64,000 bases of DNA from Escherichia phage W115. Numbering within the stretch: the stretch's first letter is position 1; each line of letters begins with the position of its first letter. Below the pieces are notes generated by a model. The model was not told where the DNA came from and ran no database searches. It saw only the letters and a list, made by a program, of their open reading frames with translations. A program made the translations under genes and the position numbers. The stretch is taken from sequence record ON286974, one strand, 5' to 3'. This document shows positions 2,168 through 41,513 of the stretch, piece after piece.

Positions 2168-3670
2168 ATGCAAGATATTAAAATTCACTTTCTGAACTAC
2201 TCCCATGTTCAAATTGAATGTAGCGATTCAATTTTATTAGAAATGCGAGATTATTTTAGTTTTGAAGTCGAGGGAGCGCGGTTTCAAAAAAGATTTAAGT
2301 ATGGTGGATGGGATGGGCGTATTCGTCTTTTAGATTACAACGGAAAGCTGCCAATCGGCCTAACTAAAACCGTGGGAATCTTCGCTAAAAATATGGGCTA
2401 TAGCGTATGGGTAGATCCTCGCTTATTCGAAAAAGAACAAGTTACAGAAGAAGAAATTACAAAATGGTGTAATGACTTAGAATTATATTCCGGTGCTAAC
2501 AGGATCACCCCGCATTGGTATCAATCAAAGGCCGTCTTTGAAGGTATTCATCATAAACGCCGTATGTTAGTTTTGCCTACGTCCGCTGGTAAATCTGCGA
2601 TTGCTTGTATGTTGTCTCGTTGGTACTTAGAGAACTACGAAGGGAAAGTGTTGATCATCGTTCCTACCACGTCGCTAGTGCTGCAAATGCGTGATGACTT
2701 TGTTGATTATCGCCAGTTTCCTTATGAAGCAATTCATACTATCATGAGCGGTACTAGTAAACACGTAGGTGATCGCCTGATCGTTGTTAGTACGTGGCAA
2801 TCTGCATGTAAACAACCTCGTGAGTGGTTCCAACAATTCGGGATGGTTATTGTTGACGAATGTCATAAAGCCACTGCTAAAAACCTGCTAAACATCGTTA
2901 CTGATATGGATCATTGCCAATTTAAGATCGGCATGACTGGTTCCCCTCGTGACGGGAAAGCTAACATGATGCAGTATGTCGGGCTTTTCGGTGATATTTC
3001 TAAGATCGTGAGTATTGACCGCCTGATGGAAGAAGGTCAGGTGACAAAACTGAAAATTAACTGTCTTTTCCTTCGTTATACCGATGAGGAATGTAGCGCG
3101 GTTAAGGGGCGAGAATATGCGGAAGAGATCAAGTATATTACGTCTAACCCACGACGAAATAAGTTTGCTTGTAATTTGGCGCTAAAACTCGCTAAGAAGG
3201 GCGAAAACGTATTCCTGATGTTCCGCAATACTAAGCACGGAAAACTTATGTATGACGCGTTACAGAAGGTACACGACAAGGTTTATTATATTGACGGTGG
3301 AGTTAAGACAGAAGAACGTGATGAATTTAAGAAAATGGCGGAGGGTGACACCGGGATCATTTGTGTTGCGTCTTATGGTGTGTTCTCTACTGGTGTTTCA
3401 ATTAAGAATTTGCACCATGTTATTTTCGGTCATCCAGTGAAGGAATCAACTATCGTTCGTCAGAGTATCGGTCGTGCATTGCGCAAACATGGTTCTAAGG
3501 ATATTGCAACGGTCTGGGATCTTATAGATCATCTGGCGGTGAAGACAAAGAGCAAGAATGCTAAGAAACAGTTTAGTCACCTTAATTATGCTCTTAAACA
3601 TGCCCTTGAAAGAATAAAAATTTACAACACCGACCGATTTGAATATGTCACGAAAACCATCGAGATTTAA
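2168..3670 (+). CDS. uvsW: UvsW DNA/RNA helicase
   Basis: Strong similarity to T4 UvsW along the length (MQDIKIHF..., LPTSAGKS Walker A, DECH box, VWDLIDH); track ORF begins at an upstream GTG, ATG at 2168 matches the T4 N-terminus. Confidence 0.9.
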   Translation: MQDIKIHFLNYSHVQIECSDSILLEMRDYFSFEVEGARFQKRFKYGGWDGRIRLLDYNGKLPIGLTKTVGIFAKNMGYSVWVDPRLFEKEQVTEEEITKWCNDLELYSGANRITPHWYQSKAVFEGIHHKRRMLVLPTSAGKSAIACMLSRWYLENYEGKVLIIVPTTSLVLQMRDDFVDYRQFPYEAIHTIMSGTSKHVGDRLIVVSTWQSACKQPREWFQQFGMVIVDECHKATAKNLLNIVTDMDHCQFKIGMTGSPRDGKANMMQYVGLFGDISKIVSIDRLMEEGQVTKLKINCLFLRYTDEECSAVKGREYAEEIKYITSNPRRNKFACNLALKLAKKGENVFLMFRNTKHGKLMYDALQKVHDKVYYIDGGVKTEERDEFKKMAEGDTGIICVASYGVFSTGVSIKNLHHVIFGHPVKESTIVRQSIGRALRKHGSKDIATVWDLIDHLAVKTKSKNAKKQFSHLNYALKHALERIKIYNTDRFEYVTKTIEI

Positions 3671-36826: not shown

Positions 36827-38047
36827 TTATACTGCCATTTGAGCGGTGATGGCTGGATGGCTTTGATAGTTGTGAATTTTAAAGTCTTTCGGAGTTTTTG
36901 TCAATACCTCATCTAAAGATTTAAATTCCGGCAACTCAATTGTTGGTTTATCAAACGGAACACGGCTTAACTGTTCCATGACTTGATCAAAATGGTTTTT
37001 GTAAATGTGAGTATCTCCACCAGAGAAAATCAGTTCTCCTACCTCAAGATCACACATTTTCGCTATGATGTGAGTTAACAGCGCATAGCTGGCAACATTA
37101 AAGGGCAAGCCCAAAAAGCTGTCTACGCTTCGCTGAAACCACATACAAGACAGTTTACCTTCATTGACGTAGAATTGTACGAACGGATGACATACACCCA
37201 ATACAGCATTATGTGTTCCTTGTACGTTCCATGAGTCAATAATGATCCGGCGATCCGTTGGATTGTTTTTAATTTGTTCGATCACATTTTGTAACTGGTC
37301 TTCCCAAATCTTCGGGCGATAGACATATTCTTCATCGTCTTTAGTGCTTGATGTGTCTACGTCCATACTAACAAACATCGTGGTATCCGGTGCTATAATA
37401 TCCCCACCCAGATAATCACTATCAAGCAGATAACCGAAATAACCGTCATCTACCCATTCCTGGAATCCCCACAAGCAATATGCATCATTAACAAAATTAG
37501 ATTGAGTCTTCCAGTGGTCTGCTACCAGAATATAATCAAACTCTTCATAACGCATACCACGCCAGATAGCACATAAACGGTCTTCTGTTTCATTGGTTGG
37601 CGTAAAGTCTTCTACCCACGGGTGTTTAAATGTATGTGTATATTTGCTCTTAACGCGCTTAATTTTGATTTCACCGTGTGGATGAATCGGTTTGCGTCGC
37701 CATGCCATGCCATACATATTGCCGACATTATAACCATTGAATCGCAAAGGATTCTTTTCTTTCATATCAAGACAGTTGCCGCGCCAAATGTCGAAGGCTT
37801 CTTCGTCAAACTTACCGCGTGTAATTTCCTGTAAGCGACGGCGGTCAAGTGATCCCTCCATAAACCATAGCAACTCGCCAATTATAGAGGCTGTAGCCAT
37901 CTTTTTGGTGGTCAGTAATGGAAAACCCTTGCTTAAATCAATTCGCATCTCTGCGCCGAATTTAGAGAGCGTACCTACCCCCGTGCGGTCTTCACGAGGC
38001 CAGCCATTATCAAGAACATCACGCAACAGTTTCAAATATTCTTTCAT
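36827..38047 (-). CDS. td: thymidylate synthase with large internal insertion
   Basis: 406 aa; N-terminal DRTGVGT, active-site region LGVCHPFVQFY, C-terminal FSGGDTHIY; about 110 extra residues inserted relative to T4 Td. Confidence 0.8.
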   Translation of the reverse strand: MKEYLKLLRDVLDNGWPREDRTGVGTLSKFGAEMRIDLSKGFPLLTTKKMATASIIGELLWFMEGSLDRRRLQEITRGKFDEEAFDIWRGNCLDMKEKNPLRFNGYNVGNMYGMAWRRKPIHPHGEIKIKRVKSKYTHTFKHPWVEDFTPTNETEDRLCAIWRGMRYEEFDYILVADHWKTQSNFVNDAYCLWGFQEWVDDGYFGYLLDSDYLGGDIIAPDTTMFVSMDVDTSSTKDDEEYVYRPKIWEDQLQNVIEQIKNNPTDRRIIIDSWNVQGTHNAVLGVCHPFVQFYVNEGKLSCMWFQRSVDSFLGLPFNVASYALLTHIIAKMCDLEVGELIFSGGDTHIYKNHFDQVMEQLSRVPFDKPTIELPEFKSLDEVLTKTPKDFKIHNYQSHPAITAQMAV

Positions 38048-38966: not shown

Positions 38967-39296
38967 TCAAATCAGTTTAAAGAAGTTTTCGTTTACATTT
39001 TCTTCGGTGATTGCTGTCTTAAATTCTTGACCGTTATCCGGTGTGATGAAATAACGGTCAGAATAATCACGATAACGTTTTAAGTGAGATACACCAACAT
39101 TAACACCATTTTCCCAAAAACGAAAGGTAATCATTTTTGGTTCATATCGATAGTCGCTGGTTAACACAGTACCATCACCGCGACGGGCTTCATAAACCGT
39201 AATACATTCACGATTAGCGGCTTTTAGGCATTCTTCAATAGTGCCACATGAGATAATACTTACTTTTTCATCTACGATTTGTTCTACAGTCCACAT
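38967..39296 (-). CDS. hypothetical protein (109 aa)
   Basis: True start MWTVEQIVDEK... after GAGAGGA RBS; track N-terminus is promoter. Confidence 0.45.
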   Translation of the reverse strand: MWTVEQIVDEKVSIISCGTIEECLKAANRECITVYEARRGDGTVLTSDYRYEPKMITFRFWENGVNVGVSHLKRYRDYSDRYFITPDNGQEFKTAITEENVNENFFKLI

Positions 39297-39343
39297 AATA
39301 TAATCCTCTCTTTGTTTCGATATGTACATTATACACTATTGCG

Positions 39344-40360
39344 TTACGCTGTCAACTCTTTTTCAAAAGTTTTTACGATATACATGATAGTGCTCAATTC
39401 AGACGGCGCGACTGTTTCTGTGTAGCCATCCGGCATATCTTCTTTTGAGATATAGGAAGTTTTACCTTTCATCGCTTCCTTGATCTTGTTCTCTAATTCT
39501 AAGATCTTTTGACCGTCTTGTAAAGTCAATTCATAAAAGATCTCGTGGTCGAATTTAGATTTCGCTGATTGGTTTCTCATTCGTTCTTGTGTTGTTAAAT
39601 TGGTTATTCCAAATTTGATTCCATAAAAACATGATTTTTTAATTAGTTTTTGAATGTATAGTGTTCCGTGTTTTAAAGTGTTGTATCCAAATCTAGCACA
39701 ACTTGAACATCTATTTCCTGATAGAAACCCGTTAATTGTTGGTGTAAATGTATGACCATTACAACATTGCAATTTTAATTTTGTTGTATTTCCTTTCCAT
39801 TCACCTATAAATCCATTGAATAGTATGTTTTCTTTATCAAAGATTGGTTTAATTCTAATAATATAGTCATCTTTGGGTATTGATTTTAATTCTTTCAGTT
39901 TTAACCGGTAGCATTCTTGGCAGCGTCTTCCATTTTTGAAATTGTTAATTGTTGGTGTAAATGTATGTCCATTACAACATTGTAGATTTAATTTTGTCGA
40001 TGACCTTTTCCATTCACCTATAAATCCATTGAATAGTATGTTTTCTTTATCAAAGATTGGAGTTAACTTATGTAGATGTTCATCTTCCGAAAAAGATTTC
40101 ATCCTTCCATTCTTTATGTCTGCACATTTATGACAGCGATTTCCAGCGTTGAAATTGTTAATTGTTATTGTAAATGTATGACCATTACAACATTGCAATT
40201 TTAATTTTGTTGTATTTCCTTTCCATTCACCTATAAATCCAATAAACTTTATATTTTCTTTAAAGAATGTTGGTTTTAATTCTTCGTAGTAATTCACTGG
40301 AGATTTTGAATTGTGAGCTTTTCTAACCCATTCAATCTCATGTGCTTGACGTACTAACAT
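39344..40360 (-). CDS. protein with three tandem Cys-rich repeats (putative Zn-binding), function unknown
   Basis: Three repeats of about 70 aa, FDKENILFNGFIGEWK...TKL.LQCCNGHTFT.TINNF..G.RC..C; start re-assigned to ATG 40360 after GGAGGATAA RBS. Confidence 0.55.
   Translation of the reverse strand: MLVRQAHEIEWVRKAHNSKSPVNYYEELKPTFFKENIKFIGFIGEWKGNTTKLKLQCCNGHTFTITINNFNAGNRCHKCADIKNGRMKSFSEDEHLHKLTPIFDKENILFNGFIGEWKRSSTKLNLQCCNGHTFTPTINNFKNGRRCQECYRLKLKELKSIPKDDYIIRIKPIFDKENILFNGFIGEWKGNTTKLKLQCCNGHTFTPTINGFLSGNRCSSCARFGYNTLKHGTLYIQKLIKKSCFYGIKFGITNLTTQERMRNQSAKSKFDHEIFYELTLQDGQKILELENKIKEAMKGKTSYISKEDMPDGYTETVAPSELSTIMYIVKTFEKELTA
39720..40280. repeat. three tandem DNA repeats of about 210-215 bp inside the Cys-rich repeat gene
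   Basis: Near-identical stretches around 39730-39850, 39945-40060 and 40155-40275. Confidence 0.6.
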
Positions 40361-40443
40361 AATTTTATCCTCCGTTGTTTCTATGGGTGCATTATACATT
40401 ACCACATCAGCATGTCAATACATTTTCATAAAATTTTAGGCAA

Positions 40444-40471
40444 TAAAAAAAGCCTCCCCGAAGGAAGGCTT
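40444..40471 (-). terminator. rho-independent terminator downstream of gene 32
   Basis: Hairpin agcctccc-cgaa-ggaaggct with U-run. Confidence 0.55.
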
Positions 40472-40480
40472 TAAAATTCA

Positions 40481-41455
40481 TTACATCCCTAACAGAGCGT
40501 CAAGATCATCCAGATCAGAAGCGGAGGAAGTACCGCCACCCAGATCCAGCGATGCCATCAGGTCATCAGCGGAAGAATCTAACGCCGTGCTAGCTGCGTT
40601 AATACCAACTACAGTGCTAGCTGCGTTAATACCAGAATCGAATGCATTCATCTGTGCGTCAAAATCGTCAAGCTGGCTGTTAATCGCTGCCGCAGCACTG
40701 GAAGCCGCAGCACCAGCTACCATAGAAACGCCCATAGTTTTCTTAAATTTGGTTTCCAGTTCATCGAACGGTTTAAACTGGCTAGGCGCTACAATCTCAC
40801 TCAGGTCAACCATGTTTTCCATCAGATATTTCTGATATGCTTCGTCTTCAATTTTCGGAAGCTGTGATTGCTGCATGAAACGAGAATCATCATAGTTCTG
40901 GTGTTTATCAACCTTCTTAGCTTTCAGGAGGAAGTTAGCACCGGAGAACACACAAGTTACATCTACCGGAACTTCGCCCATGTCGGTATTCACGTTCACC
41001 ATTGCAACGATCTTATCATAAATTTTCTGACCGAAGCGGAATTTGAATACCTTACCTTCATTTTCTGGTGCTTGAGGATCTTTCAGTACCAGAATGTTTG
41101 CGTAGTAAGACGCTTTACGCTTAATCAGTTGCCATTCGGTTTTATCGGTATTGTACAGGTCTTTTTCGTTAATATATTTGCACACAGGGCAAGAATCAAA
41201 ATCACCGTGGGTGCTGGAGCAGTTTTCCCAATACCATTTGCCATTAACTTTGAAGGAATGGTTTACCAGTTTCACAATCGGCAGACCGTCTTCTGTCTTC
41301 GACGGCAGGAAGCGAATCAGGGCTTCACCGTTACCTGCTGCATCAGTCTTAATCTTCCACTCTTTCGGATCTTCTTTGGAGAAACCGTTGCCACCTTTCA
41401 GTGCGGCCAGTTGAGCTTGCAGTTTGGAAGAATCTTGGCGTTTAAACATATTCAC
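40481..41455 (-). CDS. 32: gp32 single-stranded DNA-binding protein
   Basis: 324 aa; strong similarity to T4 gp32 (IRFLPSK, zinc site CSSTHGD...[10 protein letters not shown], acidic C-terminus). Confidence 0.9.
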
Positions 41456-41485
41456 TATTCCTTCTTTTGATTGATTTACTAGACT

Positions 41486-41513
41486 ATTATACAGATTTAA
41501 ATTTACTTGTCAA
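41486..41513 (-). promoter_or_regulatory. sigma70-type promoter upstream of gene 32 (TTGACA-16-TATAAT)
   Basis: Read on minus strand; overlaps the 3' end of gene 59. Confidence 0.5.

Follow-up and report, generated by a model that had tools for sequence, protein, structure and literature searches.

We examined the gene at positions 39344-40360 on the minus strand of a 64,000-nt stretch of DNA (the window; all coordinates count from its first letter) from Escherichia phage W115, sequence record ON286974. The window derives from an RB49-like T-even coliphage (Krischvirus), in which the gene forms a free-standing cassette between the essential gene 32 and frd; the minus-strand order is 59, 32, the gene under study, a 109-aa open reading frame (orfY), frd and td. 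Its 338-residue product combines three zinc modules with a predicted C-terminal nuclease domain, an architecture that points to a homing-endonuclease-type enzyme. The gene and its domains are laid out as follows:

39344..40360, minus strand: coding sequence of the putative CapR x3/T5orf172 endonuclease, 338 aa, with ATG at 40360 and stop at 39344-39346; matches PHROG 681, with the same gene in assembly GCA_038450185.1
40118..40279, minus strand: zinc module 1, aa 28-81, candidate ligands C57, H61, C76 and C79, placed by Pfam CapR, a unit profile and motif positions
39905..40066, minus strand: zinc module 2, aa 99-152, candidate ligands C128, H132, C147 and C150, placed by Pfam CapR, the unit profile and motif positions
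39692..39853, minus strand: zinc module 3, aa 170-223, candidate ligands C199, H203, C218 and C221, placed by the unit profile, motif positions and an AlphaFold2 model with a predicted local distance difference test (pLDDT) score of 95.7
39347..39688, minus strand: predicted T5orf172/MUG113-type GIY-YIG-fold nuclease domain, aa 225-338, with conserved Y235, K249, G251, I252, T253, N254, R260, E290, G312, T314, E315 and T316

The N-terminal part of the protein repeats with an exact period. The motif QCCNGHTF recurs at residues 56, 127 and 198, marking three in-frame units of 71 aa, or 213 nt. Over 39731-40262, Tandem Repeats Finder returned a period of 213, 2.5 copies, 80% matches and a score of 685, and a repeat search delineated a 156-nt core in three copies at a spacing of exactly 213 nt, two of them 81% and 78% identical to the reference copy. 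These measurements agree with a preliminary description of this DNA, made from the letters alone, which had reported three copies of a unit of roughly 70 aa with matching DNA repeats of about 210 bp. Its wording "near-identical", however, overstates the similarity: the 52-aa cores of the units share 69-81% protein and 76-81% DNA identity, the 19-aa linkers between them have diverged to 5-21%, and complete 71-aa units stand at 56-61% protein identity. By sequence comparison the similarity of the repeats is nonetheless far above chance.

Each unit corresponds to a known zinc-binding family. The Pfam CapR homology domain (PF21817) matched all three units with 80.7 bits against a cut-off of 24.2, and the treble-clef family DUF4379 also passed on the window protein (25.1 against 24.5). 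A hidden Markov model of the unit scored the individual copies at E values from 7e-39 to 2e-40, figures that are partly circular as the model was made from those same three units; the Pfam match is independent of it. In alignments of the family, the first cysteine of the CC pair and the downstream CxxC are invariant or nearly so. Across 14 units from the closest subclade, by contrast, the second cysteine of the pair varies (C, S, N or D), while a histidine four residues after the first cysteine is invariant; the ligand set is therefore likely to be C-x3-H ... C-x2-C rather than four cysteines. All three modules carry two such ligand pairs ~15-26 residues apart, the first being Cys/His and not CxxC. 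Of the CC...C..C arrangement first put forward, the suggested zinc binding, the first cysteine and the CxxC stand, whereas the histidine probably takes the place of the second cysteine.

We assign the repeat units, on sequence homology, to the CapR-homology zinc-ribbon (treble-clef) DNA-binding domains, with zinc content and DNA binding predicted from their kinship to the CapR protein of the Vibrio cholerae satellite PLE. Netter et al. 2021 (PMC8096241) describe electrophoretic mobility shift assays in which DNA binding by PLE CapR was lost on mutating conserved Cys pairs. PF21817 is named after CapR. The same zinc-ribbon DNA-binding domain occurs in both proteins, and the metal-ligand pairs are needed for CapR binding; the ligands differ, being CxxC...CxC in CapR as presented there and C-x3-H...C-x2-C in the window protein. 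The initial proposal of multi-zinc, nucleic-acid-binding repeats is in keeping with the match to this family and with the Cys-dependent DNA binding reported in those experiments.

Tandem repeats of this kind raise the question of assembly. Identical runs of 54-73 nt shared by units of 213 nt might, in theory, lead short-read assemblers to collapse or expand such an array, but the reading frame is intact through three units that each have their own diverged linker, and relatives from many laboratories share the architecture with 2-6 units. Moreover, the same 1017-nt gene, 100% identical and encoding the same protein, is present with different neighbours in GCA_038450185.1, an independent 163.8-kb assembly. 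Because of this identical copy in particular, we regard an assembly artefact as practically negligible.

The C-terminal 114 aa proved harder to assign directly. The window protein matches PHROG 681, "endonuclease", at E 1.4e-73, and RefSeq labels the RB49 and GEC-3S orthologues "endonuclease"; the top protein match in the phage collection is just 63.5% identical. Pfam families PF10544, PF13455 and PF01541 gave no direct match on the window protein even at E<=1, and several Krischvirus orthologues likewise lack a direct Pfam T5orf172, MUG113 or GIY-YIG match. NCBIfam returned no match to the window protein, and sequence and profile searches of the PDB yielded nothing meaningful. A word-indexed homologue search with the C-terminal domain recovered 8 close relatives only.

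Homologues gave a clearer picture. An exhaustive phmmer search with residues 223-338 retrieved 383 representatives at E<=1e-3, in which the domain is almost always C-terminal within proteins of 250-600 aa. We scanned 141 proteins (140 phmmer matches plus the window protein) against Pfam at E<=0.01: the domain itself was recognised as MUG113 in 49, T5orf172 in 22 and GIY-YIG in 2, and the N-terminal parts as CapR in 87, DUF4379 in 66 and DUF723 in 39. By BLASTP, the window domain aligns with residues 260-340 of a Klebsiella phage K64-1 protein (E 2e-13), a segment that is itself above the Pfam cut-off for both MUG113 (35.4 bits) and T5orf172 (31.6 bits). For residues 170-338, AlphaFold modelling from an alignment of 49 sequences reached a pLDDT of 95.7 and gave a beta-beta-alpha-beta-alpha order with a three-stranded sheet, as in the GIY-YIG fold; a single-sequence prediction of the full protein (pLDDT 32.5) was unusable. 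Foldseek comparison with viral models returned matches annotated as CapR-homology, GIY-YIG, T5 Orf172 or homing endonuclease.

The putative catalytic residues follow the same pattern, with a tyrosine in strand 1 (Y235), an arginine in helix 1 (R260) and a glutamate in helix 2 (E290). They were placed at the catalytic positions by motif order and secondary structure, not by residue-level superposition. All three are invariant in the 49 homologues and invariant or at least 90% conserved in sets of 141-149; K249, G251 and the motif G312-x-T314-E315-T316 are also invariant or nearly so. Taken together, the homologues, the pLDDT-95.7 model and the invariant Tyr/Arg/Glu indicate that the C-terminal 114 aa are a divergent T5orf172/MUG113 domain of the GIY-YIG superfamily, an assignment for which the direct evidence is weak and the indirect evidence strong. 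The GTLYIQK ... FYGIKFGIT stretch, earlier noted as weakly GIY-YIG-like, corresponds to strands 1 and 2 of this predicted fold. "Degenerate", the term first applied to a possible homing-endonuclease relative, does not fit a protein that has lost neither a zinc ligand nor any of the conserved Tyr/Arg/Glu. Zinc-finger binder and endonuclease relative had also been offered as two choices; each identity holds, but they are not alternatives, one protein being predicted as both. We are nearly certain of the domain identities, and consider it likely, with a good deal of confidence, that the protein is an active site-specific DNA endonuclease.

The same observations bear on whether the protein might instead be a non-nuclease regulator, domesticated in the manner of PLE CapR, and repress or tune transcription by using its three zinc modules to bind promoter-like sites. 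PLE CapR is a repressor of this kind (PMC8096241), the gene has an early promoter and would be expressed early, and Pfam gives no direct nuclease-domain call. CapR, however, is described in that paper as aligning only with the N-terminal DNA-binding region of endonucleases of phage ICP1, which we read as PLE CapR having lost the T5orf172 domain, whereas the window protein retains that domain, with Tyr/Arg/Glu invariant across hundreds of homologues and a confidently predicted GIY-YIG fold. We consider a purely regulatory role highly improbable.

The combination of domains places the gene in a family first described in 2021-2023, whose architecture was already known. Barth, Dunham & Seed 2023 (PMC10448857) reported that CapR, DUF723 or DUF4379 zinc-finger domains, single or in series, occur in most T5orf172 homing endonuclease genes (HEGs), likened them to "beads on a string", and described recombining nucleotide-level repeats, with a 228-bp in-frame deletion in ICP1 gp174 and six repeats in an HEG of phage Helene, as well as domain swapping. 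The window gene resembles the T5orf172 HEGs of that study (ICP1 gp174 and gp165, and those of Vibrio phages Helene, 1.187.F1 and 184E37.3a) in its CapR-type array with a C-terminal T5orf172 domain, its recombining DNA repeats, its patchy presence among close relatives, its essential-gene neighbours and its domain swapping; with the 184E37.3a protein it aligns at 32% identity over aa 50-329 (E 2e-26). It differs in its host lineage, Krischvirus not being among the enriched lineages named in PMC10448857, in a T5orf172 domain that falls below direct Pfam detection, and in being bounded by regulatory cassettes (below) and having an unusually self-similar three-unit array. These are differences of degree, and current understanding is unchanged by the finding. 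What it adds is a clean, tidy and experimentally tractable T-even (Krischvirus) example to a T5orf172/CapR family studied mostly in the vibriophage ICP1.

More distant systems share parts of the design. ICP1 Odn (Gp88; Barth et al. 2021, PMC8263062) likewise has a C-terminal T5orf172 domain with catalytic Arg and Glu and is the sole member whose cleavage has been demonstrated in vitro; it cuts DNA, a Glu-to-Ala mutant is dead, and the equivalent Glu is thus required. Unlike the window protein, Odn has a satellite-captured RepA_N DNA-binding domain, and its role is anti-satellite defence, not homing. The eukaryotic repair nucleases Slx1 and HIGLE, which are structure-specific GIY-YIG enzymes with a RING/PHD partner domain, show 10-16% sequence identity and hence fold-level kinship only. 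The T4 Seg endonucleases and I-TevI are also free-standing early genes beside essential genes in T-even genomes, with a GIY-YIG-fold catalytic domain tethered to modular DNA-binding elements, including a zinc finger, again as beads on a string; in the window protein the domain order is inverted and the YIG tyrosine is a lysine. T4 SegG adjoins gene 32 and cuts within T2 gene 32.

Around the window gene, the regulatory sequences form a frame that is shared with relatives:

40445..40469, minus strand: gene 32 intrinsic terminator, stem GCCTTCC-TTCG-GGGAGGC at 40452-40469 and T-run at 40445-40451, read from the sequence
40391..40418, minus strand: putative sigma-70-type early promoter of the endonuclease gene, TTGACA at 40413-40418, 16-nt spacer and TATAAT at 40391-40396, a perfect consensus
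40369..40373, minus strand: Shine-Dalgarno (SD) sequence GGAGG, 8 nt 5' of the ATG, read from the sequence and kept in all relatives
40277..40360, minus strand: N-terminal leader, aa 1-28 (MLVRQAHEIEW...), delimited by orthologue N-termini and DNA homology
39328..39355, minus strand: next putative early promoter, serving the downstream 109-aa open reading frame, TTGACA at 39350-39355, N16 and TATAAT at 39328-39333

The true start of the gene is the ATG at 40360, with GGAGG upstream at 40369-40373. A longer reading from a GTG at 40405 (353 aa) was rejected because that codon sits between the -35 box (40413-40418) and the -10 box (40391-40396) of the gene's own promoter. The terminator, which the GEC-3S annotation places at the homologous position, is the 5' portion of a regulatory cassette of the PeSL type preceding the endonuclease gene; PeSLs, described in RB49 and phi1 (PMC2839356), are elements made up of a stem-loop, an AT-rich stretch, a consensus sigma-70 promoter and an SD sequence. 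Homologues of both promoters at the locus are annotated as early promoters in GEC-3S. The first ~11 codons of the leader are conserved in DNA among relatives (homology restarts at 40328-40364) and mark the 5' edge of the variable array, and the leader closes with a stretch similar to the helix at the start of every repeat unit. At the other end, the final codons of the endonuclease gene, GAG TTG ACA GCG TAA, supply the -35 box of the downstream promoter, which overlaps the stop codon and is kept in all relatives, including MIZ6, which lacks the endonuclease gene.

The flanks of the locus are 92-98% identical to most compared relatives and down to ~80% for a few, and the interval between gene 32 and frd occurs in three configurations among the genomes compared:

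32-orfX-orfY, without the endonuclease gene: MIZ6
32-HEG-orfX-orfY: FL04 and Cognac
32-HEG-orfY: the window, RB49, GEC-3S, Delraymugoa, JK32, kaaroe, Whisky, Sf20 and GCA_038450185

The gene is thus sporadically present at a fixed site, MIZ6-type genomes lacking it between flanks that are 98% identical. A tblastn search found no paralogue of the endonuclease gene within the 64-kb window. Also in this interval, orfX (109 aa, no Pfam match) is a second PeSL-bounded cassette that comes and goes independently: it lies at 1553-1882 of MIZ6 segment L002 and 2761-3090 of FL04 segment L005, is absent from the window between 39344 and 39296, and encodes a protein 98% identical among MIZ6, FL04 and Cognac.

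The most informative comparison is with GCA_038450185.1, which shares with the window the following tract:

39327..40438, minus strand: 1112 bp with zero differences from GCA_038450185.1, next to 30 and 17 differences in the adjacent kilobases

With 47 differences in 2000 bp (~2.4%) in the flanks, the probability of zero differences across the tract at the flank rate is ~4e-12. Because the gene is so much more alike than its surroundings, the comparison indicates that the cassette was recently transferred laterally. Each end of the identical tract falls within a PeSL, one lying 78 nt before the ATG and the other 17 nt beyond the stop. These two regulatory cassettes are ~75-87% identical to each other; both have a perfect TTGACA-N16-TATAAT, and the upstream one has the terminator stem-loop, while the downstream PeSL is a weak example with a stem of at most 3 bp (GCG-TAA-CGC). 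In Cognac, the PeSLs on either side of the gene form direct repeats of almost the same sequence. The empty MIZ6 junction is a hybrid, its 5' half matching the upstream PeSL and its 3' half the one that follows the gene in FL04 and Cognac. It switches from one to the other between the -10 and the SD, which is where Arbiol et al. 2010 (PMC2839356) located the mini-circle junctions of RB49/phi1. The locus therefore resembles the RB49/phi1 cassettes of PeSL plus open reading frame, in that the gene is bracketed by terminator, AT-rich, consensus-promoter and SD elements and its empty junctions are PeSL hybrids. It differs in cargo, which is mostly ORFans there and a putative mobility nuclease here, and the endonuclease locus is not discussed in that paper.

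These junctions lend weight to an account in which the cassette moves solely by homologous recombination between PeSLs, through shuffling or mini-circles, with the nuclease irrelevant to its spread and the gene a passenger with some other role or none. The zero-difference tract terminates within both PeSLs, the MIZ6 junction is a PeSL hybrid with its crossover where mini-circle junctions were mapped, the PeSLs of Cognac are nearly identical direct repeats, and the neighbouring orfX behaves as a cassette without any nuclease. Such an account, however, offers no explanation for a nuclease domain that stays near-unchanged, with invariant catalytic residues, while the array turns over, nor for a family that is widespread and typically sits beside essential genes as homing genes do (PMC10448857). 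The two routes are also not exclusive, for a nearby double-strand break would stimulate the same recombination. We judge recombination as the sole driver to be unlikely, though far from implausible.

Our preferred reading, to which we give a probability of about 70%, is that of a free-standing gene for a homing-endonuclease-type enzyme, from the T5orf172 branch of the GIY-YIG superfamily, acting by the mechanism proposed here. Besides the domain architecture, it draws on signatures of homing genes at the locus: a promoter of its own, the neighbouring gene 32, patchy presence, and an identical copy amid ~2.4% divergent flanks. The consensus sigma-70 promoter would drive early transcription; the three CapR-type zinc-ribbon modules (Cys-His-Cys-Cys), strung like beads, would bind adjacent subsites, one module to one subsite, and so specify a long target; and the C-terminal domain, with Tyr235, Arg260 and Glu290, would cut the DNA nearby. 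In a mixed infection, a relative without this allele, once cut, would be repaired from the carrier genome, and the cassette would spread. Independently, the bracketing PeSLs would permit its gain, loss or swap by homologous recombination. Cleavage, the nature of the target, nuclease-driven homing and the pairing of modules with subsites are the inferred parts of this scheme.

Several points weigh against this reading. The canonical second tyrosine (YIG) is replaced by Lys249. No T5orf172 HEG has yet been experimentally shown to home, as PMC10448857 itself states. In the sole informative pair, the window and GCA_038450185.1, no co-conversion of flanks is visible, and a tract ending in promoter cassettes appears to fit PeSL recombination at least as well as break-driven homing. 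The single pair fits both possible routes of spread, and we put the chance that homing is driven by the nuclease only slightly above even.

Beside the same gene 32, GCA_038450185.1 has, in the interval from 59 to 32, a gene for a 198-aa HNH_3 endonuclease (segment L016, 1250-1846) that is missing from the window (41456-41509). In that genome a different putative homing endonuclease gene lies on each side of gene 32, an arrangement resembling the "HEG islands" of Barth et al. 2023.

While the frame of the gene is conserved, its array is not. Copy number, which the preliminary description had proposed comparing among related phages, ranges from 2 to 6 zinc units in carrier proteins of 281-542 aa, and some relatives have no gene at all. 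In most relatives, DNA homology takes in the nuclease-domain part of the gene, its 3' ~300-380 nt, and in Sf20 and Whisky only the last ~100 nt; it picks up again at the first ~11 codons and the promoter. Apart from the identical copy in GCA_038450185.1, the array DNA aligns with no relative except Delraymugoa, at ~68-77%. What varies at the locus is thus the DNA-binding array, a hypervariable cargo between a near-constant nuclease half and regulatory frame. Units within one protein are only 26-36% identical in most proteins at the locus, and high internal similarity is limited to a small subclade with arrays of 3, 5 or 6 units:

Window protein: 3 units, mean internal similarity 0.79
Metagenomic protein P0010: 5 units, mean internal similarity 0.74
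Delraymugoa, Aragogtheria and JEP8: 6 units in Delraymugoa, mean internal similarity 0.68

Within this subclade, the nearest relative of each window unit is another unit of the same protein. The DNA repeats also form a mosaic: repeat 3 shares an identical 54-nt run with repeat 2 and an identical 73-nt run with repeat 1, lengths that none of 100,000 permutations of mismatch positions reached, which makes repeat 3 a significant chimera of the other two. The confinement of self-similar arrays to one small subclade, together with this mosaic, supports a lineage-specific recent amplification with ongoing exchange among units, and the recent duplication or homogenisation first suggested for these repeats is borne out to that extent. 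Under the preferred homing reading, the 213-nt repeats would let the array change through unequal crossing-over and gene conversion, and it may also be replaced wholesale inside the constant frame of promoter and leader on one side and nuclease domain on the other, and such changes would re-target the enzyme.

The turnover of the array could also reflect conflict rather than homing, the protein being a neofunctionalised nuclease directed, like Odn, against satellites, or against competing phages (marker exclusion), with an arms race driving the changes. Shifting targets would be expected to leave just such a constant nuclease with a hypervariable array, set between flanks that are 92-98% identical; Odn, for its part, is a satellite-destroying T5orf172 nuclease whose DNA-binding domain was swapped in (PMC8263062); and bioinformatics cannot tell homing from domesticated nucleases, according to Barth et al. 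(PMC10448857). In the window protein, however, we found no satellite-derived domain, the array being of the standard CapR type of putative HEGs, and PADLOC gave one weak match (a Type I specificity subunit, 20.3 bits) with no stretch significant alone, which we judged spurious. Selfish elements, moreover, are classically marked by presence/absence polymorphism among close relatives and by a copy found unchanged in a divergent genome, as here. A role in conflict therefore strikes us as quite unlikely.

Of the 55 columns, ~10 account for half of the variability among the subclade units; they surround the zinc knuckles and the intervening loop. These columns may be specificity positions, a distribution that is suggestive and not a test. 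We speculate further that the CapR modules could constitute a fast re-programmable recognition code, with one module reading one short subsite and specificity set by the ~10 hypervariable positions, and that the array of this lineage was recently "rebooted", one module having been multiplied into 3, 5 or 6 copies, an event that would yield a periodic or tandem target; as a whole, we hold this scenario to be a long shot. If it were true, the frame of constant nuclease and swappable array would be a natural programmable-nuclease scaffold. Either way, the locus is a natural experiment, with a constant nuclease and frame, arrays of 2-6 units spanning ~30% to ~80% internal identity, empty sites, and a copy without differences in a genome whose flanks have diverged. 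In an E. coli system, it becomes testable whether T5orf172 genes home, how the number and sequence of modules set the target, and how nuclease-driven and PeSL-driven mobility interplay.

Smaller features were seen in the neighbouring genes. Gene 32 contains at 40587-40634, in its C-terminal tail region, a perfect 21-nt direct repeat, GTGCTAGCTGCGTTAATACCA, with 27-nt spacing, that encodes a doubled GINAAST segment; the duplication is probably fixed, gp32 having the same length in the relatives checked. For the gene 3' of the endonuclease gene, the program-made list of open reading frames gives 120 aa (38967-39329); the conserved start preceded by an SD is the ATG at 39296, giving 109 aa (MWTVEQ...), as annotated in all relatives. 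This protein (orfY) has no Pfam match. Further along, the thymidylate synthase gene (36827-38047, minus strand) encodes 406 aa, and its Pfam family matches in two stretches, hence our placing of an insertion of ~130 extra residues near profile position 110. The td genes of relatives are annotated as similarly long, at 406-410 aa, with one listing of 411. Inside this gene, the segment at ~37010-37290 of the window shows ~100 differences in 280 nt from GCA_038450185.1, far more divergence than any other part of the locus. Finally, near-consensus sigma-70 promoters (TTGACA-N16-18-TATAAT, at most one mismatch per hexamer) number 50 on the minus strand of the window against 14 on the plus strand, an excess that would fit a region densely packed with early-promoter cassettes.

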